38,156 nucleotides of DNA from positions 1 to 38,156 of the forward strand of contig JAZOQL010000013.1 of assembly GCA_045656065.1 (NCBI GenBank), given 5' to 3'. The notes beneath the pieces were generated by a model. That model did no database searches. It was given only the letters and a program-made list of their open reading frames with translations, and was not told the origin of the DNA. The stretch comes from Rikenellaceae bacterium (lineage in GTDB: Bacteria; Bacteroidota; Bacteroidia; Bacteroidales; Rikenellaceae). The translations under genes and the position numbers were made by a program. Below, one piece after another: positions 2,233 through 36,053 of this stretch (position 1 is the stretch's first letter; every line of letters begins with the position of its first letter).

Positions 2233-2317
2233 TGTTATTCCTTTGGAATAAATATAGTTTTCACACCCATCGGCTTTGTCACTTTTCGAAATTTTTGACA
2301 TTTTTTTTTAAGAAACC

Positions 2318-3834: not shown

Positions 3835-3911
3835 TGCGGGGTAGAGCAGTTGGTTAGCTCGTCAGACTCATTATCTGGAGGTCGCAGGTTCGAGACCTGC
3901 CCCCGCAACCA
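3835..3911 (+). tRNA. tRNA with CAU anticodon (Met, or Ile2 if lysidine-modified), CCA encoded
   Basis: Manual cloverleaf: acceptor TGCGGGG/CCCCGCA, U8 A9, D arm GAGC-AGTTGGTTA-GCTC, anticodon arm TCAGA-CTCATTA-TCTGG (CAT at 3869..3871), variable loop AGGTC, T arm GCAGG-TTCGAGA-CCTGC, discriminator A, CCA. Confidence 0.9.
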
Positions 3912-6445: not shown

Positions 6446-7966
6446 TTACTCGTCTGGAACAATTATGTATAGTGTAGTGGCATTATGTGATGCCATTGCG
6501 TCGTAGTCGTCCTGTGAACCAGTCCAGAAATCAATACCGAGAGCCTGGGCAATGGTCTCGAATACTGGGGCGGTATCACCCTGCGATACAAGCAAACTTC
6601 CGGTTGCTCCCGACGCTGTAGGAACAAACATCCTCTGTATCGGAAGGTTATTATTTGAAGAGAAGTAAGCCCAAGGCGAACTGTAGCCACTATTATTGAT
6701 ATAAATTACCTTGTCGTAAGCTGGACGCCCAGGATACGCTTCACCCGTAGTGTAGTCAAAGTTGGTCAGGTAGTACGTTGGTGAAGAAATATAGTTAACG
6801 AGTGACATATCCCTTGAAATCGGGTAGTTTCTACTCAGCGGCTGACTAAGCTCGTAGTGACTTGTTGAAATTTCAGTGACACAGGGTATTAACAACTGTA
6901 TGTAATGAGTGTTTGGTCTCAACTGTATTACATTGTCATTCCAAGACACATACATCTGTACACTACTGTTATTGATGTATGTTTCACTTCCGGCATTACG
7001 CTGGATTTGGTAGAGAACAGAGCCAGTCTTTCCACTGTTGTCGTAAACGTCGATTGTGTCGTTTCCGAGATTGAAATAACACCAAATTTGAGTCCCCCCA
7101 GTGTTACCCTTAATCCAGCCCAAACCGAAAGCAAGCTCGCCATCCATAGACCCAGGAATCACACCGTAGAACAATGTCGCACTATCGCACATATCCCTAC
7201 TATAGGTGCGAAGTACGTCGGCACCAGTCCAATAACCCCACTTGCCAGCACCGTTAACGAACTTAATAAGCACTCCGTTGTAGTTGTACACAGCACCGTC
7301 AACCGGGTCGGAAGGCAACTCGGTAATCATTTCCACACTGCTTGCGTCACCACCGCCTTCAATAACGATGTCACCGCCTTCGGTAATAGCACTTCCGTTG
7401 ATGGTTGCAAAATCAGTCGTAGGCGTATAGGCTGTGAGAGCGTCAGAAATACTTTGGGTAACAGCCGTAGTGTCAGCCTTGCCACTTACTGCGTTTTCAA
7501 CGTCCTGGGTGGTAGCCATACCACTTGTTGCCGAGGTAATCATAGAATCGACATCATCCGAGGTCACAAAATCATCAGTAGCCTCGGAAATCATCGTTTC
7601 CACATCCCCGGTCGTAGTGAACCCGCTAATCATCGTCTCTACGTCGCCAGAAGTGACGAAATTCTGCGTCTGGGAGGTAATCTGGGACTGGACGTCACCG
7701 GAGGTAACAAAGTCGCTTGTAGCCTCGGAAATCATCGTTTCCACATCACCTGTGGTGGCATAGTCGAGCGTCATTCCGGTAACTGTTGACTCAATCGCCT
7801 CGGTAAGTCCGGTTACGTTGATAATGTTGGTCGGGGTAATCTCAATGTTGGTACCAGCATAGTATCTCTCGGTGCCACCCGTTGAAGGATGGTACGCAGA
7901 AGCCTCAATATTGGTCCTTGGTATGTGGACCCTCTGGGTTTCAGTTGTATTGTCGAAATAAACCAT
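6446..7966 (-). CDS. Tail fibre protein with an N-terminal tandem ~15-aa repeat region
   Basis: Repeats of the form (F)VTSGDVETMISEAT(S/D)D. 506 aa. Translationally coupled between the portal gene and the distal fibre gene. Confidence 0.65.
   Translation of the reverse strand: MVYFDNTTETQRVHIPRTNIEASAYHPSTGGTERYYAGTNIEITPTNIINVTGLTEAIESTVTGMTLDYATTGDVETMISEATSDFVTSGDVQSQITSQTQNFVTSGDVETMISGFTTTGDVETMISEATDDFVTSDDVDSMITSATSGMATTQDVENAVSGKADTTAVTQSISDALTAYTPTTDFATINGSAITEGGDIVIEGGGDASSVEMITELPSDPVDGAVYNYNGVLIKFVNGAGKWGYWTGADVLRTYSRDMCDSATLFYGVIPGSMDGELAFGLGWIKGNTGGTQIWCYFNLGNDTIDVYDNSGKTGSVLYQIQRNAGSETYINNSSVQMYVSWNDNVIQLRPNTHYIQLLIPCVTEISTSHYELSQPLSRNYPISRDMSLVNYISSPTYYLTNFDYTTGEAYPGRPAYDKVIYINNSGYSSPWAYFSSNNNLPIQRMFVPTASGATGSLLVSQGDTAPVFETIAQALGIDFWTGSQDDYDAMASHNATTLYIIVPDE
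7470..7755 (-). repeat. Degenerate ~45-nt in-frame tandem repeats inside the fibre gene
   Basis: About six peptide repeats (TGDVETMISEATSDFV / TSGDVQSQITSQTQNFV ...). cctcggaaatcatcgtttccacatc recurs about 140 nt apart. Confidence 0.6.
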
Positions 7967-9072: not shown

Positions 9073-9074
9073 TT

Positions 9075-9335
9075 TTAACCTTGGTATTGTACGTAAGTAG
9101 TCTTGGACTGAGCCGTATAAGCCGTTTTTTCAGGTACATACGCACCAACCTGGGCTACACCAGTCGCAAGATGGTTATTTTGGTCGTCCATAAGGACATA
9201 TTCATAGTCTCCGTCGTCCATTCCTTCCGGCAACTCAACATCGAACTCGTAATTGTAGGCTGAGGAACCCAAATCGACGATATTTTCAATGATTGTGACG
9301 ACTTTTGTAAGACAGTTGCTGAGTTGTAACTTCAT
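9075..9335 (-). CDS. Hypothetical small virion-module protein
   Basis: 86-aa ORF with an ATG start 16 nt after a TATATTTAT box. Its stop lies 2 nt before the portal ATG. Confidence 0.5.
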   Translation of the reverse strand: MKLQLSNCLTKVVTIIENIVDLGSSAYNYEFDVELPEGMDDGDYEYVLMDDQNNHLATGVAQVGAYVPEKTAYTAQSKTTYVQYQG

Positions 9336-9387
9336 TTTTCAACGATTTTACATAAATATAATCGTCATACCACCTGGCAAAGTGGTA

Positions 9388-9419
9388 CAATAAAGAAAGG
9401 TGGTACGAGACCACCTTTC
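9388..9419 (-). terminator. Rho-independent terminator inside the structural region
   Basis: Perfect 10-bp stem GAAAGGTGGT-ctcgt-ACCACCTTTC followed by TTTATTG on the minus strand. A second hairpin TACCAC/GTGGTA lies at 9367..9388. Confidence 0.7.
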
Positions 9420-9464
9420 ACAGTTAATATGGGGACCCAGGAATTACGCCTGGATAGTTGCAGA

Positions 9465-15072: not shown

Positions 15073-18000
15073 TTACCAGGTTGTCTCATTTGTACGTTTC
15101 GTAGCCAGTTCCTGACTTGCCGTCACATCCGATTCTACTACGAAGGCTCTAAGAGGTTTCTCGTCAAGACTGTTGCGTAGGTAATCGGTATCGTCCTTAC
15201 CTGTCACATTGGTCACATACTGTGGCTGGTAATCGGAAAGTGAAGGCATCGCATTGACGTATGAGTCAGCACCGGAACCAGTATTGTCCTTGGTGGTGGC
15301 GAGAATAAGCTTCACATTTGCCATACCAGCGGCGAGTGCGGCGGCAGCAGCAGCGATACCAAGTGCCGGACCGACATAAGGGATTGAAGCAAGTGAGTTG
15401 TAAGCACCAACGGCACTACCGAGAGCGTCCATCGTTGCAGCAGCAGCCTTGATACCCCTGTACTCGTCAAGCTGTTTCTCGGCTTCCTCATTGGTCATCT
15501 TGCCTTCCGCAACCTTTACCTGCATCGTCTTTTCAACGGCGGTATAAACATCGTCGAAGATGCCACTGAGTCCCTGGAAACCCTGCTGGAGGTAACCCGA
15601 AATCTCATCGAAAGCAGCCTTCGCATTATCAACCCTCATCTGGTCAATCTGCAACTGGTATTCAAGCGTACCGAGTGCAAGTTCCTTCTGGGCGTCCGCA
15701 AGTGCGGCTTCCATTTCGAGCCTTTCCTGACCGACGAGTTTGCCACTATCAAGCACCTTCTGCATCTGTTCAATCTGAGCCTTGGCACTTTCCTCGTAGA
15801 TTTTCTTTTCATCTTCGAGACCTTGAAGTTCAGCTTTGTTACGTTCCACACCCCAGACGCTGGTGCTACCCATAGCACCCCAGACCCTTTCGCCCTTGAC
15901 GTTTGCATCATTACCGAGAAGCATAGCGTATCCGGTATTCACACTGTTCATTCGTTTGCGGGCGTCCTCCCAACGCTGAATCTGTGCGATTGCAGCATCG
16001 GCTTCCTCCTTTGCATACTTTGATGTGATTTTCAGGCGTTCCTGGGCGTAGTGTTCCTCAAGGTTGGTAGTTTCAATACCCTTGCGTTCGTACTCCTTGA
16101 TTTCCTTGTCCATTGTGTCCTGAAGGTTGGCAAGTTCAACTTCCATCATCGCCTTGTTGTATTCGTTTATGGTCTTTGAAGTTGCCAAATCAAGTGCCTT
16201 GCGTTCAAGCAGTGCGTTCTTGTACTTATCGACGTACTTGTCAAGGATGTCCTGCTTACGCTTGGTGTACTCAGCCTCCAGTCCGGTCGTATCCTCACCA
16301 GCGTTCTTGTAGATTTCCACCTGAACGGTATGCCACTCTTCGAGTTTGTCCAGTTCAACCTGGAGTTCAGTCTTAAGTGAATCAAGGTACTGTTTTTGGA
16401 GTTTGGTATGGTACTCATTGAAATCGTTGAGGTACTTCTGCTTGTTTACCTGTGCCTCTCTGAGAGCCTTTTCGTCATTCTTGTAATGCTCGATGTACTC
16501 GTCATACATCTTGTTGTAATACTTGAGACCTTCGGCACTGTACTTCCAGATTGAAGCGAAGTCGAGTTCCTCGTATTCACCCTGGAATTTCTGCAAAGTC
16601 GCCTCGAATTCCTTGATGTAGAGTTCCCACTTACTGAACCAGTTGTCACCCTTACCGGAACCACCGTTCTTACCAAACAGCAACTCGCTCGGATTGAACT
16701 CTTCGAGGAACTTGTTAAGCCACTGCTCAAAGTCGTTCTGAACACCCTTAAGGTTTTCCTCGGCTCTCTTGATGGAACCCTGCAAAGCATCGTCCATAGC
16801 CTTCTGGGTTTGTTCAGGCGTAGGCATACTACCGACACCGATGGTAGGTGAGTAAACGGTACCCATAGTCTGCTGGAAACTACCGAGTGCGTCAATCTTT
16901 CCGTTCCTTGCCTCGGCGACCTTATCCATTGCATCGATTACGTCCTTGTACTTCTCGGTAATCTTGGATGTCATAGCCTCAGCTTGTGCCTGTTTGATGA
17001 GAGCCTTTGTAACCTCGTCAATGGACTGTGCGAACTCACCGTTCTTTACCTTTGCTATATTGGTTGCGGTCGTAGCACTGCCCATCGTTTTCAGCACTTC
17101 CTTCGCAGCAATGGTACGTTCCTTATCTGACTTGGAAGCCATCGTAGCCCACTTGCTGTATATCTGAAGGTCTACAAGCTGTTTTGCGGCGTTCCTATGT
17201 CCCTCCTGCATTGCCTGGTTCCACTCCTTCTGGAACCTTGCAGCCTGCTTTGCTTCCTTGTTGAAAATGTTAAGGTTTCTCGCCCACTTGATAATGTCCT
17301 TACCGAAGATTGCAAGCACCATAATCACAGCAAGTATTAAAGTCTGCCAGGACAAAAGCGTCTTGATTAGACCCTTCAATGCACCTCCGGCGGTCTGCAT
17401 CTTACGCTGTTCCTCGACTACTTTCTCAGCAGCAGCAAGTTTGTTTTCAGCATTGGTGAGACCGATTTCAGCAGCCGTAAGTTCAGCGGTTGCAGCAGCA
17501 AGGTCGATGGTAAGCTGTGAGTTCTGTGCCTTGAGTTTGTTAAGGGTTTCAAGGTTTATGATAAGTTCCTGGTCTGTGCCGTTAAGGTTAACCTTTGAAG
17601 CAACCTCAGCCATCAATGCCTGGACCCTTGCCTGTGTCAGAGCAAGGTCGTTCTTCTTAGCCTGAGCAGCCGCCAAGGTCGCCCTTGCCTGTTCGAGTTC
17701 TGCCTTGGCACTGTCCCTAACAGCCTCGGCTTCCGCAAGGTGTGAACCAGCGGACTGCAACACCGCAGTAGTTTCAGCCTGGTGCGCTTCCATTGACTCG
17801 GCTGCTTCACCAGCTTCTGCTCGGTGTGCGGTAGCATCCTGAGAAGCCGCAACACTTGCAGCATCCCCTGCTTCCTTGAGTGACCTATAAGCGTTGACTA
17901 TGCTTGGAATTTGCTGAGCCAACTGCATAAAGAACTGCTCAGGACCATTCTCAAGTGAAGGTATCGTCTTCGCCAGGCTGATGAAAGACCTTGACATAGA

Positions 18001-18423
18001 ATCAGCCGCACTGTTGATGGCTCCCTCGTAATTTCCGACATTCCTTTGGAAATTTCCGATGGATGCATCCATACCCTTGAGCTCGTTGTTGATTGCCTTG
18101 ATTGAAGGTGCAAGGTCAAGTCTCTGGGCTTCATCAGAGGTCTGCTTATATGTTTTGTTGAGGTCCTTGAGGATGTCGTTAAGCTGACGATAACTGACGT
18201 TCGATGCATCGATGACGTTATCGTTCTTCTGCATAACCTTCACCAACGCCATTTCCTGGTCAGCCAATTGCTTGGTCAACTCAGCGGTTTTTTCCTTGTC
18301 GTTCTTATACTCCTTAAGCTCTTCCCTGGTCCTTGTAATCTGGTTCACCAGTTCCTCGAATGCAGCCTGGAGTTGTGAGGCATCACCAGTAAATACGACT
18401 TTTTCTTCAATCTGTTCTGCCAT
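15073..18423 (-). CDS. Tape measure protein
   Basis: 1116 aa with long coiled-coil Ala/Glu/Lys-rich stretches. Internal hydrophobic segment LLSWQTLILAVIMVLAIFG. C-terminal Gly/Ala-rich hydrophobic region GPALGIAAAAAALAAGMANV. Confidence 0.75.
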   Translation of the reverse strand: MAEQIEEKVVFTGDASQLQAAFEELVNQITRTREELKEYKNDKEKTAELTKQLADQEMALVKVMQKNDNVIDASNVSYRQLNDILKDLNKTYKQTSDEAQRLDLAPSIKAINNELKGMDASIGNFQRNVGNYEGAINSAADSMSRSFISLAKTIPSLENGPEQFFMQLAQQIPSIVNAYRSLKEAGDAASVAASQDATAHRAEAGEAAESMEAHQAETTAVLQSAGSHLAEAEAVRDSAKAELEQARATLAAAQAKKNDLALTQARVQALMAEVASKVNLNGTDQELIINLETLNKLKAQNSQLTIDLAAATAELTAAEIGLTNAENKLAAAEKVVEEQRKMQTAGGALKGLIKTLLSWQTLILAVIMVLAIFGKDIIKWARNLNIFNKEAKQAARFQKEWNQAMQEGHRNAAKQLVDLQIYSKWATMASKSDKERTIAAKEVLKTMGSATTATNIAKVKNGEFAQSIDEVTKALIKQAQAEAMTSKITEKYKDVIDAMDKVAEARNGKIDALGSFQQTMGTVYSPTIGVGSMPTPEQTQKAMDDALQGSIKRAEENLKGVQNDFEQWLNKFLEEFNPSELLFGKNGGSGKGDNWFSKWELYIKEFEATLQKFQGEYEELDFASIWKYSAEGLKYYNKMYDEYIEHYKNDEKALREAQVNKQKYLNDFNEYHTKLQKQYLDSLKTELQVELDKLEEWHTVQVEIYKNAGEDTTGLEAEYTKRKQDILDKYVDKYKNALLERKALDLATSKTINEYNKAMMEVELANLQDTMDKEIKEYERKGIETTNLEEHYAQERLKITSKYAKEEADAAIAQIQRWEDARKRMNSVNTGYAMLLGNDANVKGERVWGAMGSTSVWGVERNKAELQGLEDEKKIYEESAKAQIEQMQKVLDSGKLVGQERLEMEAALADAQKELALGTLEYQLQIDQMRVDNAKAAFDEISGYLQQGFQGLSGIFDDVYTAVEKTMQVKVAEGKMTNEEAEKQLDEYRGIKAAAATMDALGSAVGAYNSLASIPYVGPALGIAAAAAALAAGMANVKLILATTKDNTGSGADSYVNAMPSLSDYQPQYVTNVTGKDDTDYLRNSLDEKPLRAFVVESDVTASQELATKRTNETTW

Positions 18424-18534
18424 ATTCTAACAATTTTAGATAAATATCATTTCTAAACACAATGGGGGCACCGCAAGGCACCCCCACACCCAGTCCATTA
18501 ACAAGGTAGCGACTCCGGTAGCAACGGCGGGTGA

Positions 18535-22548: not shown

Positions 22549-24978
22549 TTACGCATCACCGACCGCACTCCAATTGAAGTATCCGAGGTAGTAACGGTCC
22601 TCGCTCATCCAGGAACTATAGTCAGCCCCGGCAGGGTAATGCAGTGTTCCACCTTGCGGTATCAACTGGAACGAATACTGAAGCACCGTTGGCGCCGTAG
22701 TGCCAAGTGCGGTTATCGACATTAGCGAATCACAGCTACAGAACACACCCTCTTCGAGTTTGGTGATGTTAGCCGGAATGGTTATCGAAGGCAGTGATTC
22801 ACACCTGTAGAACAAGCTGTCGCCGAGAACCGTCATACCCCTACCAATGGTAACCGCAGTCAAGTTGTGCATATCTGTGAACGCAAAGTCGGAAACATCC
22901 GTAACACTGTCCGGTATAATCAACTCAGGTACCGCACTGTAACTCAGTATATTGTTTCCTATATGTACAAGACCCTCGTTGAGCGTCAGTGAGGTCAAGC
23001 TTTCAGTGTATTGCAATGCGTTCGCTGAAATGTACCTTAGTGAAGGTGGAGCGACGAAAGTCCTGATGCCCGTATTTGCAAACATATCCATACCGAGGCT
23101 TTCGCACATAGAAGGCTGTGCAAATGTCACCGCAGTAAGGTTGGTACATCCGCTGAATACATTCGGGTAGGCTCCGGTTACGTTCTGTGCGATTTCAACT
23201 TTCCTCAGATATTGGTTGTTCATCCACATCTGCCAACCGATGCTTCCTGTTTCTCCACTGACCTGGAACTTGACGATATGCTCACCAGCTTCCGAGAAGT
23301 TGTAGTACTTGGAAAGTGGAACGTCAACGCCATCAACCCTCATAGTCTGTTTGAGCGTTTGAGTTCCGGTACGCCCGGTTTGAGCCATAGTTGACATTAC
23401 GAGGTTATTTCCAGACTGAGGGAAGTCGAACGTACACACAATCCAGAAGTTCGAAGGGTCGTTGTCTTCCTGGTATAGAGGCACCTGTATTGAATGGTCT
23501 GAGTTGTAAACGACAAGAGTGTCAGTCTTTGACGTTGAATATGGGTTGAAACCACAGGTAACGCTGATGGTTGTGGTACCGCTGCCACCACTATTCTGAC
23601 TTACAGTAAACCAACCTGATGTGTTGCCACTGATTTGCCAGCCGTAGTTACTGGTAATGGTGAGCGTCTTGGTACCACCTTCGTTGGTCCAGTTGAGTGA
23701 AGAAGGAACGACCGTAAGGGTTTTTTCCATATTCTTCTGAGAAACTACCGCAGTAGCGGTTGAACTGTCGCTACCGATGACCACAATCCTTCCAGTCTTT
23801 TCATTGAAAGTCTGGTTTGGCTGCGTAGTGCCAGTAAATGTGAACGTTCCAGCACCGCCGGAAGTTGAACCATTGATGGTAATCCATTCAGGATAGGAAT
23901 CAAGCCTCCAAGATACGTTTGAAGTAACAGTGAAAACCTGTGAGCCGCCAGTATAAGAGAATACGTAAGTCGTAGGAGCAATGGTGATGCTCGACTCGAA
24001 CGCATCCTGGGTAACAGTCACAGGAACACTCTCGGAACCAGCAGCAAATACGACGACGCCGTTTCTGGTTTCGGTCCTCAAATTACCCTGGGCAACAAGG
24101 TCAACAGTCGCATTTCCGTTTCCTGATGATATAGGTGCGACAATCCAATCAGGCTTGCTCTGTATGTACCAGTTACCGTTCGTAACAACAGACACCTGCT
24201 TAATCTCGCCATCGGCAATATAGTGCAGGCTCAAAGGAGAAACCGCAAGGTTGATGTGGTATCCCTGGGTTACTGGAATGGTCAAAGTTCTGTCACCGTA
24301 ACTTATTACGATGGACCCGTCCCTTCCGGTTCCGGCTGGGTTCTCGGTGGCGGTAAAAACGACCTCGGTGTTCGACACAGCGGAATAACTTCCACTACCT
24401 GTCAGGGTAGAAGCACTCAACCAATCTGGCATTGAAATAATGGTCCAGGATGTATTTGTTGAAATTGACATTGTTCGAGAACCTCCGGTCCAGTCATAAC
24501 TCAACGAACTTGGGAATGTGTTGACAAACAAATCGTACTCGATGTCATAGTTGAAGGTTGTGGAACCAGTGTTGTATATGGTGAACATCGACCGCATCCT
24601 CGAATCAATGTGACCGTTGATTGGCTCTGTCATCATATACCTCGTCTGACCAGTCCACCTGTCCTCGTATGACCAGTCGTAGATGAAATTGTACGTCTCA
24701 AGTAGCTCGGTGCCAGGCAACTGCCTGATTTGGTAATTCTTGCTGGCTTCACTGTTCTTGACAACATCATCGAACGCACCCCTTATGTCGGTATCGAAAT
24801 CAGGAGTGACATATTCCTCGACAATGTTGTTGACATTGATTGTGATGCCAGTCTGGTCAGGCATACGCATAGTGTAGCCGTTATGAACGGTGTTTCCACT
24901 TTCATCGGCTATCACATAATCAAGTGTATCTGCGTTGCTCTTGAACGTAATATCTTTCCAAATTGGTGAGTATATCAT
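22549..24978 (-). CDS. Virion surface protein: IWKD/TEPINGH N-domain, four BACON domains, BspA-type leucine-rich repeats (LRR_5-like)
   Basis: Four units of the type ...GGS..(V/L)(T/S)(V/I).SN..W......W(L/I)......G.G......R.G.I.V......VTQ. LRR region: VFSGCTNLTAVTF...PPSLRYISANALQYTESLTSLTL...IPDSVTDVSDFAFTDMHNLTAVTI...FYRCESLPSITIPANITKLEEGVFCSCDSL. Confidence 0.65.
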   Translation of the reverse strand: MIYSPIWKDITFKSNADTLDYVIADESGNTVHNGYTMRMPDQTGITINVNNIVEEYVTPDFDTDIRGAFDDVVKNSEASKNYQIRQLPGTELLETYNFIYDWSYEDRWTGQTRYMMTEPINGHIDSRMRSMFTIYNTGSTTFNYDIEYDLFVNTFPSSLSYDWTGGSRTMSISTNTSWTIISMPDWLSASTLTGSGSYSAVSNTEVVFTATENPAGTGRDGSIVISYGDRTLTIPVTQGYHINLAVSPLSLHYIADGEIKQVSVVTNGNWYIQSKPDWIVAPISSGNGNATVDLVAQGNLRTETRNGVVVFAAGSESVPVTVTQDAFESSITIAPTTYVFSYTGGSQVFTVTSNVSWRLDSYPEWITINGSTSGGAGTFTFTGTTQPNQTFNEKTGRIVVIGSDSSTATAVVSQKNMEKTLTVVPSSLNWTNEGGTKTLTITSNYGWQISGNTSGWFTVSQNSGGSGTTTISVTCGFNPYSTSKTDTLVVYNSDHSIQVPLYQEDNDPSNFWIVCTFDFPQSGNNLVMSTMAQTGRTGTQTLKQTMRVDGVDVPLSKYYNFSEAGEHIVKFQVSGETGSIGWQMWMNNQYLRKVEIAQNVTGAYPNVFSGCTNLTAVTFAQPSMCESLGMDMFANTGIRTFVAPPSLRYISANALQYTESLTSLTLNEGLVHIGNNILSYSAVPELIIPDSVTDVSDFAFTDMHNLTAVTIGRGMTVLGDSLFYRCESLPSITIPANITKLEEGVFCSCDSLMSITALGTTAPTVLQYSFQLIPQGGTLHYPAGADYSSWMSEDRYYLGYFNWSAVGDA

Positions 24979-24997: not shown

Positions 24998-26674
24998 TTA
25001 TAAATCATCCACAACAGTCCAGTTATAGTAACCGAGGTAGAACTGTTCGGAGCCCATCCAGGAACTGTAATCAGCACCAGCCGGGATGTGCAGCGTACCG
25101 TTCACTGAAGCACTGTGCATATAGAAACTTGTACTGGTAATCGTAGGTGCCACAAGAGCATAACAGGTAATCTCGGTCATTTGGTTATTTGCAAAAACAG
25201 TCAACCCTATGCTTGTTATTGTACTCGGTAGGATAATCCTTCTCAACCTTGCTTCACCTGAGTAGTTGGCAAACGCACCATCAGGCACCGTAGTCACCGG
25301 ACCGTCGAATATCATCTTGTACCCATTCGTAATCCTCTCGGTCGTAATGTAGTTTGCACCCCATCCGGTCGTCACTACCGTACCCTGTTCCATACCTCTG
25401 TTGGTGTAGTAAGTAACAGAATATTCATCCGGTATCTGACTAAACTGCGTAACGTCAATGTTCACACTCATATCGACACCGTTAAGCTTCACATTGATTG
25501 TACCAGTTCTTTCGTTTCCGGTTGAGTTTGAAAGACAGTTGACCGTAAACCCGGTATTGCCAAGGCTCGTAATAGAAAGCCAGGCGCTCTGGGTCGTTGC
25601 CATATATGATGTCGATGCCGTAACATTGAAAGTGGTGTCACCACCATTTACAAGGAATGAGGCTGACGTAGGTGATACGGACAATGTGTGTGCATACTGC
25701 GAAACCGTTACAACCTTTACCTCGTTCCCACTGGTGACCCTGATGCTTCCGGTCCTTGAAGCTGAGCCGGAATTGTTCTGACAAGTCACCACAAACCCGC
25801 CAGAATTCCTCGTTACGCTCAGGAAACTATCTTCACTGGTAACACTCCAATTGCCGGACAATGAATCGACGGAGACATTCGCAGTTCCACCCGAAGCCTG
25901 GAATTCAAGCGACAGTGGAGTTACATTGAAGTATCTGTCACCGCTATTGTATATGAAGTAGCCGACATCCCTCTGACTGTCACCGTACTCTGTGTACATA
26001 GCCTTCATCCTTGGGTCAAGGTGCCCGTTGATTGGCTCGGTCATCACATAGGGGCTTTCACCCTGCCAGTCGCCACCATAGTCCATAAGGAACTCGTAGT
26101 TCATCACCTCGTATCCGTCCTCACCGCACAGTGAAAAATACCTGACGGCATTCTCGTTCTCAACCACATCATCGTCAAGCTCCCTGATGTCAGGCAATAC
26201 ATTCTTGAGATAGTTCTGGCAAATCTTGTTCACCTGGACGTAACACCCGCCGTCACCCGGACGACAGTACGACGTTCCGAAATAGACAGACACACCGCTG
26301 GTGACGATTGAGTAACTGAACGAGCTTCTGTTCGATGCATAAAAATACGTATCCTTCCAGATTGAACATTTTGTTAATTCCCCGGTTCCCTGGGTTACAT
26401 AGATGTAGTTCGTCCAGGTCTGACCGCTGGTGTCGGTGCATTGGAACGTTATCCTGTCATTCCTGACACCACCAGTGTTCTCGGCAACGGTGAAACGGTA
26501 GCTCACAACGTAATCGTCACCCTCCTGACCCGCACCGATGAAATCGTATGTAATCCAGGACGGGCACACTGGGTACTGCTCGTTCCCACCCACCGTATTC
26601 TCATAGAAAACAGTCGGTGAAAAGGTGCCTCCGGTATGTGAGAATCCTACACTTTGGGTATCAACTTGTATCAT
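24998..26674 (-). CDS. Paralogous virion surface protein: BACON, IWKD/TEPINGH domain, two BACON domains, short BspA-type LRR cap
   Basis: Shares IWKD...VMTEPINGHLDPRMKAMYTEY and the C-terminus GTLHIPAGADYSSWMGSEQFYLGYYNWTVVDDL with 22549..24978. Confidence 0.65.
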   Translation of the reverse strand: MIQVDTQSVGFSHTGGTFSPTVFYENTVGGNEQYPVCPSWITYDFIGAGQEGDDYVVSYRFTVAENTGGVRNDRITFQCTDTSGQTWTNYIYVTQGTGELTKCSIWKDTYFYASNRSSFSYSIVTSGVSVYFGTSYCRPGDGGCYVQVNKICQNYLKNVLPDIRELDDDVVENENAVRYFSLCGEDGYEVMNYEFLMDYGGDWQGESPYVMTEPINGHLDPRMKAMYTEYGDSQRDVGYFIYNSGDRYFNVTPLSLEFQASGGTANVSVDSLSGNWSVTSEDSFLSVTRNSGGFVVTCQNNSGSASRTGSIRVTSGNEVKVVTVSQYAHTLSVSPTSASFLVNGGDTTFNVTASTSYMATTQSAWLSITSLGNTGFTVNCLSNSTGNERTGTINVKLNGVDMSVNIDVTQFSQIPDEYSVTYYTNRGMEQGTVVTTGWGANYITTERITNGYKMIFDGPVTTVPDGAFANYSGEARLRRIILPSTITSIGLTVFANNQMTEITCYALVAPTITSTSFYMHSASVNGTLHIPAGADYSSWMGSEQFYLGYYNWTVVDDL

Positions 26675-26698
26675 ATAAAACTGTTTGAAATAAATATC

Positions 26699-30282: not shown

Positions 30283-30307
30283 AGCTTTATCATTTGGGAT
30301 AAATATA

Positions 30308-30664
30308 TTATAAGCCGAAATAGTCGGCGACTGCCTCGAACATACGGGCGATAAAATCAAGTGAAATAACAAGCAGGTCCTTGAATGCCGGGGTCAGGAA
30401 ACTGAGCAACATACAGTAGGCGACCATCGGTATCGACAGGCAACCGCAACAGATTGTGACGATGAACGTAACCCACCAGGTCTGGCACCTGCTGCATTCG
30501 CATACTTTGAGAAGCGGGTGAATGTCCTTCCAGGAAAGGTCATCAGGGAACGGCTTGGTCTTGTAGGCATAACGCCAGACCACCCGGAGCATTTCGTCCG
30601 GGAACCCGGTGATGTCCGTCACATAGACAATCATCAATGCTATGAGGAACAGTTCGAGCGTCAT
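30308..30664 (-). CDS. Small integral membrane protein (about three transmembrane helices)
   Basis: LELFLIALMIVYVTDITGF, WWVTFIVTICCGCLSIPMVAYCMLLSFL. ATGA overlap with the upstream gene. Confidence 0.5.
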   Translation of the reverse strand: MTLELFLIALMIVYVTDITGFPDEMLRVVWRYAYKTKPFPDDLSWKDIHPLLKVCECSRCQTWWVTFIVTICCGCLSIPMVAYCMLLSFLTPAFKDLLVISLDFIARMFEAVADYFGL

Positions 30665-31455
30665 AGGTCCTGAGGTCTAACTGCGTTGTGGTAACGCTTA
30701 TTGTTCCAGTATGGTTCCCTCAAATCCTTCGCTTCAATCGGGGCGAAAGCTATGTTCGAATTATGGGCGTACCAGGTGAAGTAGTCGCTCTGGTACATAC
30801 GCTGGTCAACCCACATTATCTTTGCCATAGGGAAATACTTCTGGAGTACGAAACTGAACACCGTCTGGTCAACCCTTTCAATGCCGGAACTGTCACCGAG
30901 GTATTTGAGCAAAGCGTATGTGAGCCTGTTCAGGTCCTCGTTCAACCTGTTCTTTGTCTGAATGGAATAGCACATCTGAGCCATACCCTTGTAGTTCTTG
31001 ACATCCCAACCCTCAGCCATCTGCATAAACGCAAGGACCTTGTTTGCCTGCTGTATGTCATAACCCCTCGACTTGACCCAGGCTGTGTACTCTTCAAACT
31101 GGGTGTTCCTTGAAGGATGGAACATAAGGCTCAATTCACTGCCTTCCTTGATGTATCGGTCGATAAGCGGGTCAAGGTTCTTGTTGACACCCACACTTCC
31201 ATCAATGCGAAGGACAATCTTGTCGTCGGTGTACTTCCAGGGGTCGAAGCGAATCTGGTAGCACTTGTCGAATGTGCTTCCACTGAGGGTGTCGTCATAT
31301 ACCACCTCCCAGGAACCGGACTCGTCCTTGAGGTTTGGGTCGTTGGTCACCAGAATGTACCTGGCTCTGTCACTTTTTTCCTTGACCGGATGAATGATTT
31401 CGTACCCGTCAATGATGTAAGTCAAAACTGTGTAACGTTCGTTATTTGTAGCCAT
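30661..31455 (-). CDS. DUF616-like glycosyltransferase-fold protein
   Basis: Ordered motifs YTVLTYIIDGYE, ILVTND, W.VV, IDGS, FHPSRNTQFEEY and RVDQTVFSFVLQKYF match the DUF616 pattern (YT.I.G.YD, FTD, W.I, IDGN, HP.R...EE, RDQ.SF.Y). Confidence 0.5.
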   Translation of the reverse strand: MATNNERYTVLTYIIDGYEIIHPVKEKSDRARYILVTNDPNLKDESGSWEVVYDDTLSGSTFDKCYQIRFDPWKYTDDKIVLRIDGSVGVNKNLDPLIDRYIKEGSELSLMFHPSRNTQFEEYTAWVKSRGYDIQQANKVLAFMQMAEGWDVKNYKGMAQMCYSIQTKNRLNEDLNRLTYALLKYLGDSSGIERVDQTVFSFVLQKYFPMAKIMWVDQRMYQSDYFTWYAHNSNIAFAPIEAKDLREPYWNNKRYHNAVRPQDL

Positions 31456-31480: not shown

Positions 31481-31786
31481 TTATAGTTCGAGTTGATTGC
31501 CGACTAAACCCATCTTGGTCATAATGTCGGTCTTGATTCTGTTGATTTCCTTGAGGATGGTGGAGTGAGAAATGTTGCCGAGTAATCTTCCGAGCTTCCG
31601 GCTACTGCCGAGTTCCATATAAAGGCACCAGATTATTTTGTCAGCCTCCGGGAGCTTTGATATTGCCCGTTTGATTTCCAGGCTTCGCTCGTCCTCATTG
31701 TTCATCGGGTCATCGTCGTACTCGTATTCCTTCATAATCTGGTGAAGCTCGTCCGGGGTAATGTCAATGTTCATCTGGGATTTCAT
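31481..31786 (-). CDS. Sigma-70 family region 4 (ECF-like) as a stand-alone ORF
   Basis: SLEIKRAISKLPEADKIIWCLYMELGSSRKLGRLLGNISHSTILKEINRIKTDIMTKM fits the region-4 HTH pattern (L..LPE..R.v..L....g.S...ia..lgiS..Tv...l.Ra...l). Confidence 0.6.
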   Translation of the reverse strand: MKSQMNIDITPDELHQIMKEYEYDDDPMNNEDERSLEIKRAISKLPEADKIIWCLYMELGSSRKLGRLLGNISHSTILKEINRIKTDIMTKMGLVGNQLEL

Positions 31787-32099
31787 ATATGTTCCTCGTT
31801 ATTGGTCCACCCAGCAACCTTGGGCGTTTATAAATCCGGTAGAACGGAGAAGTAGCCGAAGCAATGTTGTTCATAACTAATCGAGCCAGATAGAAATTTA
31901 ACTCACCCCTTTCGTAAATGCCTGATAATTTGGAGTCTACGAGAAGGCTAAATAGTAAATCCTGTTCCAAATCACAGAGGTCCGGGTCGCTCGAATTGTT
32001 GGTAACCTGACGGATTATTCTATCCAGAAGTCCCTCTCTCACAATCGTTTCCGTAATGCGTCTGTTTTCATCTGACGAAACCTTTTTATTGTCAATCAC
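31764..32099 (-). CDS. Sigma-70 family region 2 (ECF-like) as a stand-alone ORF
   Basis: DPDLCDLEQDLLFSLLVDSKLSGIYERGELNFYLARLVMNNIASATSPFYRIYKR fits the region 2.1-2.4 pattern (D.eDl.Qe.f......... F..WL.rIa.N). GTG start. Overlaps the region-4 ORF by 23 nt in a different frame. Confidence 0.6.
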   Translation of the reverse strand: MIDNKKVSSDENRRITETIVREGLLDRIIRQVTNNSSDPDLCDLEQDLLFSLLVDSKLSGIYERGELNFYLARLVMNNIASATSPFYRIYKRPRLLGGPITRNIYEIPDEH

Positions 32100-32122
32100 T
32101 GATTTCTAAATAATTTTAATAT

Positions 32123-32147
32123 TTCCTTATTACGTAGTAATAAGGAA
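32123..32147. promoter_or_regulatory. Perfect 11-3-11 palindrome in the divergent control region
   Basis: TTCCTTATTAC-gta-GTAATAAGGAA, 24 nt upstream of the sigma-region-2 ORF start. Confidence 0.5.
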
Positions 32148-32332
32148 TTATTAAGTGTCATTCCTTCCATCCTGGTAACCGCACATATAAATAATAGTGT
32201 CCTGTTCAGAAATGTAAAGTCCAACACATTCCGTAAATAAATATGTTCCAACATCAAAAAAGTTTCAAGTTTGGCATACTTTTTGCTATAGTGTAGGTGT
32301 AATACGAAATGAATACGTTTAACCATTAAATA

Positions 32333-32668: not shown

Positions 32669-32673
32669 TGTCG

Positions 32674-32748
32674 ATTTCTTAATAAAACGCTTGGACATTC
32701 CGAAATTACTACTAACTTTGCATACGAAACAGATAAACCGAATATCTA
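32674..32748 (+). promoter_or_regulatory. Early promoter-leader cassette, copy 1 (-7 box TAACTTTG at 32713..32720)
   Basis: The 52-nt core 32697..32748 matches 33392..33443 at 51 of 52 positions. TAnnTTTG match. Ends at the ATG of the next gene. Confidence 0.5.
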
Positions 32749-33377
32749 TGAAATACAATTTCAGTAAAATCGACGAGACCGTCAAGATTGTTCCTATGGG
32801 GGCATTGTTCTGCAAGCGGATTATGGACCGTCTGCGCAAGAAGTGCAAGGGTGTGATTATGCCGAACCAGTGTTTCTTCAACGCCCTGGTGGTGGCTGGC
32901 TGGCTCAGGGAGTGGGGTTTCGATGTTGAGGTGGTTGAAGGTATGCAATCACAGAACGACAACTATATTGCGTTGAGTCGTAAGCTTGGGTTGAAGGAGG
33001 AAAGTGACAGGGAGCATTTGAAGAACCAGGCTCCGATTGCTCACAGGTGGCTCAGGAAGGGTGACAAGTATTTTGACCCTACTGTGGAGTTGCTGTTCGG
33101 TATGGAGTTCGTCAGGAGCTTCGACTACAATGCAAAGCGTATCTATGACAACCAGGAGCTTATTCGGTACGCTGGTGAAATACGGGACACCTTCGGGGTT
33201 GACGAGGTTCACTTTGTATCATCAATCACAGGCACCACCTTCTACTATGATGGTGACAACGACATCCCTGTGCATTGGGGTTACATCAACGACGACGGTG
33301 AGTATGTGGCACCTGAACAGAACCCGTATGAGCTGTTCACCGCATTGCGTAACACAAGGTACCCTTCAATTTCTTAA
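32748..33377 (+). CDS. Transglutaminase-like / papain-fold cysteine peptidase candidate
   Basis: ATG at 32748 (MKYNFSKIDE...). Candidate Cys-His-Asp triad: NQCFFNALVVAGWLREWGF ... IAHRWLRKGDKYFDPT (compare G.C..FA.l...llRa.GiPaR ... HaW.E.y..g.W..fDPT). Confidence 0.4.
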   Translation: MKYNFSKIDETVKIVPMGALFCKRIMDRLRKKCKGVIMPNQCFFNALVVAGWLREWGFDVEVVEGMQSQNDNYIALSRKLGLKEESDREHLKNQAPIAHRWLRKGDKYFDPTVELLFGMEFVRSFDYNAKRIYDNQELIRYAGEIRDTFGVDEVHFVSSITGTTFYYDGDNDIPVHWGYINDDGEYVAPEQNPYELFTALRNTRYPSIS

Positions 33378-33443
33378 AAAAAGTTTAGGAAATTCCGAAA
33401 TTATTACTAACTTTGCATACGAAACAGATAAACCGAATATCTA
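33367..33443 (+). promoter_or_regulatory. Early promoter-leader cassette, copy 2 (-7 box TAACTTTG at 33408..33415)
   Basis: See copy 1. TTTAG-N19-TAACTTTG spacing fits the Bacteroides -33/-7 architecture. Confidence 0.5.
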
Positions 33444-34844: not shown

Positions 34845-34895
34845 GCACTCTTAAAAAATGCCGGGTCCAGGGTTCGAGCCCCTGAGAGTGTACCA
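34845..34895 (+). other. tRNA 3'-end-like segment (T arm, acceptor 3' strand, ACCA): candidate attP core
   Basis: CAGGG-TTCGAGC-CCCTG, then AGAGTGT, A, CCA at 34868..34895. An upstream GCACTCT (34845..34851) can pair with AGAGTGT. Lies 33 nt upstream of the integrase ATG. Confidence 0.5.
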
Positions 34896-34928: not shown

Positions 34929-36053
34929 ATGCGTACTACATTTTCCTTTTCCTTCTATTGCAGAAGGTCGAAAGCCGACCGGAACGGTCAGGCGCCAATC
35001 GAGCTTGGTATCACCATCAACGGTACCAGAAAATTCATCAACTGTGCTATGAAATGTAGCCCAGTGGAATTCGGCTACAAACGGAAGCCGAAACACATCC
35101 AGGACTACATCGACACCCAGCGGGTCATCGTTTCCAACCTTGTGACAGAAATGGCAAGACAGGGAATTCCGCTGACCGCCGAGAACCTGCGGGGTTACCT
35201 CCGTACCGGGGGTGTCGTATCGTACACCATCCGCAACCTGTTCGACGACTATTTCAAGCTGTTGGGCAAGCGGGCTGGTGTGGACCTCAGTGTCAGAGCC
35301 TACGACAAGTACAAGCTGGTTGAGAAACAGTTCTCGGAGCACATCGACTTCTCCAAGGAGGTCACCGCCATCACTCCGGCGGTCATCCAGGACTTCTATG
35401 CTACATTGAAGTCCAAGTACCAGGACTCTACCAGTTGCGGTATGATGACCAAACTTAAGACTGTGGTCAAGTATGCTATCGACAATGGGAAGTTGAAAGT
35501 GAACCCGTTCCAGGGTGTGAAGATTAAGAAGGGTATGAAGGAAATCAGGACCATTACGATGCAGCAGCTTCAGGCAATCATCAATCACCAGTTCGTACCG
35601 AGGGTGCAGAAGGTTGCTGATATGTTTATATTCTCCTGTGGGTCTGGTTTGTCTTTTGCTGACTGTATGGCTCTGAAACCTCAGGATTTCACTGTCAGGG
35701 AAGGGAGGATTTGTGTGTTCAAGGAACGTCAGAAGACCGGGGTCCGGTTCTACAGTGTGTTGATGCCCTGGGCGGTTGACATCTACCAGAAATACGCTGG
35801 CGACTTTGAAGGGCTCAAACTGAGCAACCAGAAGGCTAACAGCTATTTGAAAGAGGTGCAGGACATAGTTGGCATCGACCTACCGCTTCATTTCCACCTC
35901 GCCCGACATTTCTATGCAATGCACCTCTTGAACAAAAAAGTACCTATCACAACCGTAAGCAAAGCCATCGGTCATTCAACTCTCAGTATGACCACCCATT
36001 ATGCGAAGGCTCTGGAGAGTACAGTCATCAACGACATCGGGAACATCATCTGA
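34929..36053 (+). CDS. int: Tyrosine recombinase / phage integrase (Bacteroidota IntDOT-like architecture)
   Basis: N-terminus TFSFSFYCRRSKADRNGQAPIELGITINGTR is typical of the Bacteroidota integrase arm-binding domain. Catalytic region LHFHLARHFYAMHLL ... GHSTLSMTTHYAK carries the H-x-x-R, H and Y residues. Confidence 0.85.
   Translation: MRTTFSFSFYCRRSKADRNGQAPIELGITINGTRKFINCAMKCSPVEFGYKRKPKHIQDYIDTQRVIVSNLVTEMARQGIPLTAENLRGYLRTGGVVSYTIRNLFDDYFKLLGKRAGVDLSVRAYDKYKLVEKQFSEHIDFSKEVTAITPAVIQDFYATLKSKYQDSTSCGMMTKLKTVVKYAIDNGKLKVNPFQGVKIKKGMKEIRTITMQQLQAIINHQFVPRVQKVADMFIFSCGSGLSFADCMALKPQDFTVREGRICVFKERQKTGVRFYSVLMPWAVDIYQKYAGDFEGLKLSNQKANSYLKEVQDIVGIDLPLHFHLARHFYAMHLLNKKVPITTVSKAIGHSTLSMTTHYAKALESTVINDIGNII

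Follow-up and report, generated by a model that had tools for sequence, protein, structure and literature searches.

Here, we describe two adjacent genes in a 38,156-nt stretch of DNA from a Rikenellaceae bacterium (GenBank assembly GCA_045656065.1, contig JAZOQL010000013.1, positions 1 to 38,156; hereafter the window) that probably encode the separately translated subunits of one extracytoplasmic function (ECF)-like sigma factor of a temperate gut-Bacteroidales phage. The window itself looks like a near-complete temperate phage genome, since its relatives sit on contigs of 36–40 kb. The upstream open reading frame (ORF1) encodes a sigma domain 2-like protein and the downstream one (ORF2) a sigma domain 4-like protein with a helix-turn-helix (HTH), and the chain is interrupted in the linker that connects these domains in ECF sigma factors.

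Both genes are on the minus strand. ORF1 runs from 32099 to 31764, starts with GTG and encodes 111 amino acids (aa), and ORF2 runs from 31786 to 31481, starts with ATG and encodes 101 aa, as seen both in the ORF list and in the sequence. The ORF2 start is 313 nt past that of ORF1, which places it in the +1 frame, and the two genes overlap by 23 nt (ATATATGAAATCCCAGATGAACATTGA), probably the site of translational coupling. Four codons 5′ of the ORF2 ATG a TAA closes the frame, GAGGA lies 6 nt 5′ of this ATG, and the junction contains no homopolymer run. An alternative in-frame ATG at 31774 would give a 97-aa product and an 11-nt overlap, and this is the form of ORF2 entered in a public protein collection (P0009). 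The first-pass annotation had described an ECF-like sigma factor divided between overlapping region 2 and region 4 ORFs in different frames; the ORFs, their overlap, the +1 frame and the cited peptide motifs are all present in the sequence. The features of the pair are as follows.

31764 to 32099, minus strand: ORF1, sigma domain 2-like (regions 2.1–2.4) with a disordered C-terminal tail, from family profiles and an AlphaFold2 (AF2) model.
31481 to 31786, minus strand: ORF2, sigma domain 4-like HTH (regions 4.1–4.2), from family profiles and an AF2 model.
31764 to 31786, minus strand: 23-nt overlap of the ORF1 tail and the ORF2 start in different frames, from the sequence; the same junction is present in the relative L069.
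31824 to 31859, minus strand: ORF1 residues 81–92, conserved segment SxTSPFYRxY at the broken end, with no counterpart in ECF sigma factors.
31709 to 31768, minus strand: ORF2 residues 7–26, conserved segment IDITPDELxxIxKEYEYD at the broken end, with no counterpart in ECF sigma factors.

Because direct Pfam and PHROG searches with the single ORFs were weak or empty, the domains had to be identified with family profiles. These were compared by hhalign with an alignment of 14 annotated ECF sigma factors taken from plasmid records and representing six phyla or classes; the RpoE query matched an E. coli record at 100%. Controls were the wrong half, a reversed template and 40 column-shuffled templates. 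The ORF1 family (alignment A3, 146 sequences) matched the full ECF alignment over RpoE 29–102 with a score of 41.3 (Prob 88.8%, P = 2.5e-6), scoring 39.5 with the correct half, 9.3 with the wrong half, 10.3 with the reversed template and a mean of 10.3 (maximum 15.9) with the shuffles. Likewise, the ORF2 family (alignment A2, 52 homologues of 79–106 aa) matched over RpoE 114–191 with a score of 37.7 (Prob 82%, P = 1e-5), as compared with 36.2 for the correct half, 7.2 for the wrong half, 10.2 for the reversed template and a mean of 11.0 (maximum 16.2) for the shuffles. Placed end to end in gene order, the two ORFs thus cover an entire ECF sigma factor that is interrupted in the inter-domain linker, as had been proposed: similarity of the ORF1 family stops at about RpoE 102 and that of the ORF2 family begins at about 114.

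The close ORF1 family has 8 homologues of 118–130 aa, and a Pfam scan of close homologues (9 scanned) returned nothing sigma-like. An exhaustive profile search at E ≤ 1e-3 recovered 633 representative clusters (50% identity), and the best 150 of these 633 are almost all stand-alone proteins of 94–135 aa. Sigma70_r2 is by far the commonest Pfam match among the 146 members of A3, being found in 37 of them (best E = 3.1e-5). The most conserved ORF1 positions are the sigma-2 core-binding motif D-L-x-Q-D/E and a region 2.4-like xWL/YLxRIxxN; hhalign pairs ORF1 D-L-x-Q-D with the region 2.2 motif D-V-V-Q-E of ECF sigma factors, and F-Y-L-A-R-L-V-M-N-N with the region 2.4 motif T-W-L-Y-R-I-A-x-N. Immediately after the region 2.4-like helix is a conserved segment specific to the family, S-x-T-S-P-F/Y-Y-R-x-Y. 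The AF2 model has five helices, with a predicted local distance difference test score (pLDDT) mostly above 84 at residues 10–80, and residues 97–111 are disordered. Its fold matches in BFVD are phage proteins of 160–232 aa with 24–30% identity, one of which carries the name "RNA polymerase sigma-70 region 2".

For ORF2 alone, the best Pfam match is HTH_50 (E = 6e-4), with 19.8 bits against a gathering cut-off of 27, and PHROG returned two sigma families weakly (E ~0.02). When the members of its family are scanned individually, HTH_50 is found in 51 of 51, Sigma70_r4_2 in seven (best 9e-5) and Sigma70_r4 in four, and among PDB sequences FliA region 4 is the top match of the ORF2 profile. The ORF2 AF2 model (pLDDT 86) has as its top Foldseek matches in PDB nearly all ECF sigma-4 domains, including SigD4, SigL4 and SigR4, with target-normalised TM-scores of 0.6–0.69 and root-mean-square deviations of 2.3–3.2 Å for several; the match to sigmaE region 4 on –35 DNA has a Foldseek probability of 0.99. 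A strongly conserved, family-specific segment (I-D-I-T-P-D-E-L-x-x-I-x-K-E-Y-E-Y-D) is at the N-terminus. The earlier assignment of region 2 to ORF1 and region 4 to ORF2 is thus borne out by the controlled profile comparisons, the ORF2 structure search and the per-member Pfam scans; of the hidden Markov model searches suggested for both ORFs, direct scanning found nothing for ORF1 and a weak HTH for ORF2, and it was the member-by-member scans of the families that yielded sigma domains.

The genomic context of homologues, drawn from independent metagenome assemblies, reveals the same two-gene layout in each locus that contains the relevant sequence. An ORF1-family gene is directly 5′ of an ORF2-family gene, on the same strand and as a separate ORF, in 14 of 14 lineages, of which the window, L001, L002/L003, L005/L006, L007/L008, L009, L010, L011 and L012 are closer and L013, L030, L031, L032 and L033 are distant, with ORF1 homologues that are only ~25–30% identical. 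The downstream proteins of the five distant pairs match the ORF2 profile (E = 1e-5 to 3e-26), and, aligned together, they match genuine sigma-4 (P = 4.6e-7), with no match to sigma-2. The genes overlap by 1, 8, 11, 13, 17, 20, 23, 29, 32 or 53 nt, and L002 and L003 have, in place of an overlap, a 37-nt spacer in which all frames contain stop codons, so that a single shift cannot fuse the genes. ORF2 is in the +1 frame relative to ORF1 in 12 of the 14 lineages and in the +2 frame in L030 and L033, it keeps its own start codon in every lineage, and no slippery or shift-prone motif is common to the overlaps of the lineages compared. In the relatives, the ORF1 stop (TGA or TAA) is usually within the ORF2 codons for a conserved I-(D/N/K)-I motif.

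All 52 ORF2 homologues are unfused. One candidate for a natural fusion was P0201, a 214-aa protein (L015, 594–1238) with an ORF1-like N-terminus (hhalign 98%) and a C-terminus that appears HTH-like by eye; it was rejected because the C-terminus has no significant similarity to either the ORF2 family or ECF sigma-4. Among GenBank phages, the region has no relative at the DNA level and ORF2 has no match by tblastn, and no prophage copy turned up when 185,579 species genomes were scanned with the ORF2 family.

A particularly close relative, L069, comes from a different sequencing run and sample and is 97% identical over both ORFs, with an identical junction and no insertions or deletions; the single-base difference restoring one continuous ORF, which the first-pass annotation had named as grounds for abandoning its proposal, is absent. 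Synonymous and non-synonymous differences between L069 and the window number six and four in ORF1 and eight and two in ORF2 when each is read in its own frame, as against one and nine, and two and nine, in the wrong frames. Each ORF is subject to purifying selection in its own frame, and the split is conserved and old, not a sequencing error. Group 4 (ECF) sigma factors have both domains on one polypeptide, joined by a linker, whereas here there are two ORFs in different frames, and two genes in all 14 lineages; sigma-2-like and sigma-4-like domains are on separate polypeptides encoded by adjacent genes, as expected of a two-subunit sigma factor. Of the three explanations that had been offered for the split – a two-polypeptide factor, a programmed +1 shift and a 1-nt error or mutation – the comparison of relatives favours the first.

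From these similarities we infer RNA polymerase binding, heterodimer formation, translational coupling, target promoters and timing. ORF1 would play the part of sigma-2, docking on the beta-prime clamp helices and recognizing and melting the –10 region, and ORF2 that of sigma-4, docking on the beta-flap and reading the –35 region through its HTH. The genes are adjacent, usually overlap and are probably coupled in translation, such that both halves would be made together. In single-chain ECF sigma factors the sigma2–sigma4 linker threads the active-site cleft and RNA exit channel of RNA polymerase; in the divided factor, the SxTSPFYRxY segment at the end of the ORF1 fold and the IDITPDELxxIxKEYEYD segment at the start of ORF2 could hold the halves together or replace the linker on the polymerase, and the two segments at these broken ends may make up the interface between the subunits. 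The pair would most likely redirect the host RNA polymerase to phage late promoters, for which ATATTTAT elements are the candidate targets. Such a role as late-transcription switch would fit both the gene order, in which the pair is at the head of the strand encoding packaging, structural and lysis functions, and the presence of a conserved motif on this late strand.

The relevant control features are as follows.

32100 to 32332, between divergent genes: intergenic control region separating the plus-strand early and lysogeny genes from the sigma pair, from the sequence.
32125 to 32145, 25 nt 5′ of the ORF1 start: palindrome CCTTATTACTACGTAATAAGG, from the sequence.
32237 to 32244, minus strand: copy of ATATTTAT in the control region, from the motif search.
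30299 to 30306, minus strand: ATATTTAT, extended form TATAATATATTTATCCCAAAT, with an ATG 23 nt on; candidate late promoter or initiation element.
26679 to 26697, minus strand: ATATTTATTTCAAACAGTT, candidate late element 23 nt 5′ of the start of gene 24998–26674; kept in L001 at 7442.
18429 to 18447, minus strand: ATATTTATCTAAAATTGTT, candidate late element past a terminator-like hairpin and 24 nt 5′ of the start of gene 15073–18423.
9341 to 9359, minus strand: ATATTTATGTAAAATCGTT, candidate late element past a terminator-like hairpin, with an ATG 22 nt on, in the gap 9073–9464.
2248 to 2255, minus strand: ATATTTAT, candidate late element with an ATG near 2231, 24 nt on.

There are 6 copies of ATATTTAT on the late strand where 0.35 are expected, and 5 copies have an ATG 22–24 nt downstream where 0.02 are expected; two follow terminator-like hairpins. 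The extended consensus is TATAA-K-ATATTTAT-YYMAAA (K = T/G). In the close relatives L001, L002, L005 and L006 the element is kept in position and confined to the gene strand, with the copy at 30299 having equivalents at 3214 in L001, 2304 in L002 and 4458 in L005/L006, and we regard ATATTTAT as a candidate for the cognate late promoter of the sigma pair. When the control region was scanned for simple sigma-70 promoters, matches were no commoner than in shuffled sequence. The palindrome CCTTATTACTACGTAATAAGG has a longer counterpart with the same outer arms at the equivalent place in L005 and L006 (~2620–2650), whose 3-nt centre is inverted between these two contigs although they are otherwise near-identical, and a 17-mer of it is present between the two sigma genes of L002 (~785–801) and L003. 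This palindrome may serve as an operator or be a hairpin prone to recombination.

Several observations weigh against a two-subunit sigma factor. Some concern ORF1, which alone gives zero sigma matches in Pfam and PHROG scans and is under all Pfam thresholds; searches of PDB sequences with the ORF1-family profiles A1 and A3 recovered no sigma factor, and Foldseek comparison of its model with PDB yielded noise (E > 5) and no sigma-2 domain. The putative assignment of ORF1 to sigma-2 is accordingly one made at the level of profile similarity, at 89% probability. The ORF2 HTH matches the generic families HTH_50 and HTH_38 and the DnaA C-terminal domain as well, no confirmed fused homologue was recovered, and the binding of RNA polymerase and contact between the halves are predictions. 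Others concern the proposed targets: ATATTTAT is absent from the more distant relatives examined, no convincing –35-like partner was found by eye, and its proximity to start codons means that it could be a translation or host-promoter element. Finally, a sigma gene heading its own target operon needs a separate early promoter, and none was identified.

It is conceivable, but in our judgement unlikely, that the pair is not a sigma factor at all, with ORF2 acting as an ordinary sigma-4-like or HTH regulator (activator or repressor) or a sigma-appropriation factor, and ORF1 as a sigma-2-derived, RNA polymerase-binding modulator that would inhibit or re-tune the host sigma factor. Phages do make sigma-mimicking modulators, and the equally good matches of the ORF2 HTH to generic HTH families, the great divergence of ORF1 from sigma-2 and the palindrome just 5′ of the pair, which is typical of the operator of a dimeric regulator, are all consistent with this explanation. 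It does not account readily for the colinear and specific tiling of an ECF sigma factor by the two families, or for the core-binding and region 2.4-like motifs being the top conserved positions of ORF1, and the strict adjacency in all 14 lineages argues for a joint function.

Less probable is a mode of action like that of phage T4, in which ORF1 alone would read a late promoter with only a –10 element and ORF2 would be a beta-flap co-activator and not a reader of the –35 region. T4 gp55 and gp33 stand in for sigma domains 2 and 4, acting with a sliding clamp (PMC13627669, PMC7892883), the clamp gp45 being required (PMC7892883), and T4 late promoters need both proteins (PMC13627669; PMC7892883). 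The similarity is that both are phage-encoded pairs acting, for ORF1 and ORF2 by prediction, in place of sigma domains 2 and 4 on the host RNA polymerase to switch on late genes, and that the sole recurrent late-strand element found in the window is one AT-rich box lacking a clear –35 partner. However, gp33 is a co-activator that works with gp45 (PMC7892883), and not a canonical sigma-4 domain, whereas ORF2 has a complete, canonical sigma-4-type HTH, and its best match in structure is sigmaE region 4 on –35 DNA. The gp55 and gp33 genes are also far apart in the T4 genome, unlike the adjacent ORF1 and ORF2. Neither family resembles gp55 or gp33 in sequence, with hhalign and hmmsearch comparisons at background, although the T4 proteins were used as single sequences, which limits sensitivity; and no sliding-clamp gene was recognized among the annotated ORFs of the window, many of its ORFs being unannotated.

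Programmed +1 ribosomal frameshifting or transcriptional slippage, generating a fused sigma factor as the sole active form or alongside the separate products, has a very small chance of being correct. It was considered from the +1 relationship in the first 10 lineages and draws on the persistence of that frame in 12 of 14 lineages despite varied overlap lengths, on GAGGA 5′ of the window overlap, and on an A7 run in the L005 overlap. As an obligatory mechanism it was rejected because of the +2 pairs in L030 and L033 and the spacer of L002, no single shift being able to fuse the genes of either L002 or L003, and obligatory programmed frameshifting is very unlikely. There is furthermore no shift site common to the overlaps, and the ORF2 start codon is kept in every lineage. 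Bacteroidales make little use of Shine-Dalgarno pairing, and with such hosts a Shine-Dalgarno-stimulated shift is unlikely. Common descent is the simplest explanation for the prevalence of the +1 frame, which is reinforced because the ORF1 stop is embedded in conserved ORF2 codons, either ATT-GAC (which contains TGA) or ATT-AAx; the frame may even record an original frameshift by which an ancestral gene became divided.

A 1-nt assembly error or recent frameshift mutation in a single-chain ECF sigma gene, to which the +1 overlap, the ECF-like combined length and the ability of one insertion or deletion in the overlap to fuse the ORFs might have pointed, is excluded by the two-gene layout in all 14 lineages down to ~25–30% identity, the stops in all frames of the L002/L003 spacer, the indel-free and identical junction of L069, the lack of fusions among the 52 ORF2 homologues, the purifying selection on each ORF in its own frame and the ORF2 start codon present in every lineage.

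Among known systems, SigO-RsoA is an ECF-like factor with sigma-2 and sigma-4 on separate polypeptides (PMC7826278). This B. subtilis pair (also YvrI-YvrHa) is the closest functional analogue of the phage pair, as it likewise divides the functions of sigma-2 and of sigma-4 between two small proteins with adjacent genes, and differs in controlling a cellular stress regulon, ORF1 and ORF2 being a phage system. MacLellan et al. reportedly showed in 2009 that SigO, which bears sigma-4, is the larger protein and is encoded first, and that the 80-aa RsoA is a fragment whose only such element is a core-binding motif like that of region 2. In ORF1/ORF2, by contrast, the order is sigma-2 followed by sigma-4, colinear with an unsplit ECF sigma factor, and the cut is in the linker, leaving halves of ~100 aa that each have a complete domain. 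With single-chain ECF sigma factors such as E. coli RpoE and phage-encoded ECF-like proteins, the pair shares domain content, order and combined size; it departs from them in that the chain is broken in the linker and the parts are translated separately, that Pfam models miss the diverged ORF1, and that there are extra conserved motifs at the broken ends.

A further comparison is with Francisella MtvS1 and MtvS2, a proposed non-canonical split sigma factor consisting of two small proteins thought by its proponents to sit at the beta-prime coiled-coil and beta-flap sites in the manner of sigma domains 2 and 4 (PMC13627669). MtvS1 has a YgfB-like fold and is not a member of the sigma-70 family, mtvS1 and mtvS2 are not linked, and their activity has yet to be reconstituted; ORF1 and ORF2, unlike these, are recognizably of the sigma-70 family and have adjacent genes. 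A literature search found no description of a phage ECF-like sigma factor split at the linker. ORF1/ORF2, which probably works like the SigO-RsoA and gp55/gp33 systems, is best regarded as a separate family: no similarity to gp55 or gp33 was detected, its gene order follows that of an unsplit ECF sigma factor, and each half has a complete domain.

The remainder of the window is organized as two divergent sets of genes. On the minus strand, 3′ of the sigma pair, are genes for a conserved 264-aa protein, large terminase, head protease, portal, a tape-measure-like protein and endolysin, and on the other side of the divergent control region (233 nt) the last of the plus-strand genes encodes a tyrosine integrase. 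The promoters on the plus strand bear the Bacteroidota –7 box TAACTTTG. A 29-nt tRNA 3′ end (T-arm and acceptor stem, then CCA) is located at 34864–34892 on the plus strand, just 5′ of the integrase gene (34929–36053). In 33 species genomes, tRNA-Lys(CTT) genes have an identical 3′ end; nearly all of these genomes are Bacteroidales (Prevotella, Alloprevotella and Bacteroidaceae), and many are metagenome-assembled genomes from ruminant gut. From this identity, Bacteroidales are the probable host group and the segment is the probable attachment site; 34864–34892 is probably the attP core.

Several other features of the genome were observed. The conserved protein 3′ of the pair (30661–31455, minus strand) has homologues in L001, L002, L005, L007 and L069 (264–273 aa) and always adjoins the sigma pair, being 3′ of it in most lineages and 5′ in L007; it has a weak PHROG glycosyltransferase match and no Pfam match. 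In L015, the second gene 3′ of that for P0201, past a single 96-aa ORF, encodes a Glyco_trans_1_4 protein. A 78-nt direct repeat on the plus strand (32671–32748 and 33366–33443, 90% identity) has each of its copies ending at the start of a plus-strand ORF and containing TAACTTTG, a match to TAnnTTTG, the –7 box of Bacteroidota; the two copies are probably early promoters that have been duplicated. There is a complete tRNA-Met (CAT) at 3835–3911 on the plus strand, opposite to the late genes, within a 483-nt late-region gap flanked by terminator-like hairpins. Two adjacent large genes (22549–24978 and 24998–26674) share repeats of 72–80% identity (22555–22650 with 25004–25099, and 24581–24639 with 25992–26050) and may be paralogous tail-fibre or receptor-binding genes. 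Within gene 6446–7966, an 83-nt direct repeat (7533–7615 and 7674–7756, 141 nt apart, 80% identity) indicates an internal repeat in the protein product.

To our knowledge, only two natural divided sigma systems are commonly cited, B. subtilis SigO-RsoA and T4 gp55/gp33. The phage pair would represent a third, independent and much larger divided-sigma family, with at least 633 clusters at 50% identity, of which the best 150 are almost all stand-alone; it appears to be cut cleanly in the sigma2–sigma4 linker, with both halves still recognizable as sigma-70-family domains, and existing ECF catalogues and Pfam models overlook it completely. Somewhat more tentatively than for the pair itself, we suggest that Bacteroidales phages may have a large, unrecognized family of naturally split ECF-like sigma factors, in which the linker has been replaced by two free ends bearing SxTSPYYxxY and ITPxELxxIxxEYxYD, and whose halves would assemble non-covalently on the polymerase, permitting independent control of –10 and –35 recognition and serving as a late master switch. 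Such a family would be a natural test case for the role of the ECF linker in initiation and promoter escape, and could supply orthogonal split-sigma parts for synthetic AND-gate circuits in Bacteroides.

If this proposal is true, non-covalent assembly would allow the recognition of the –10 and –35 regions to be loaded, released or regulated independently. The sigma pair is also likely to be the late-gene switch of a widespread group of temperate phages whose hosts are gut and rumen Bacteroidales.

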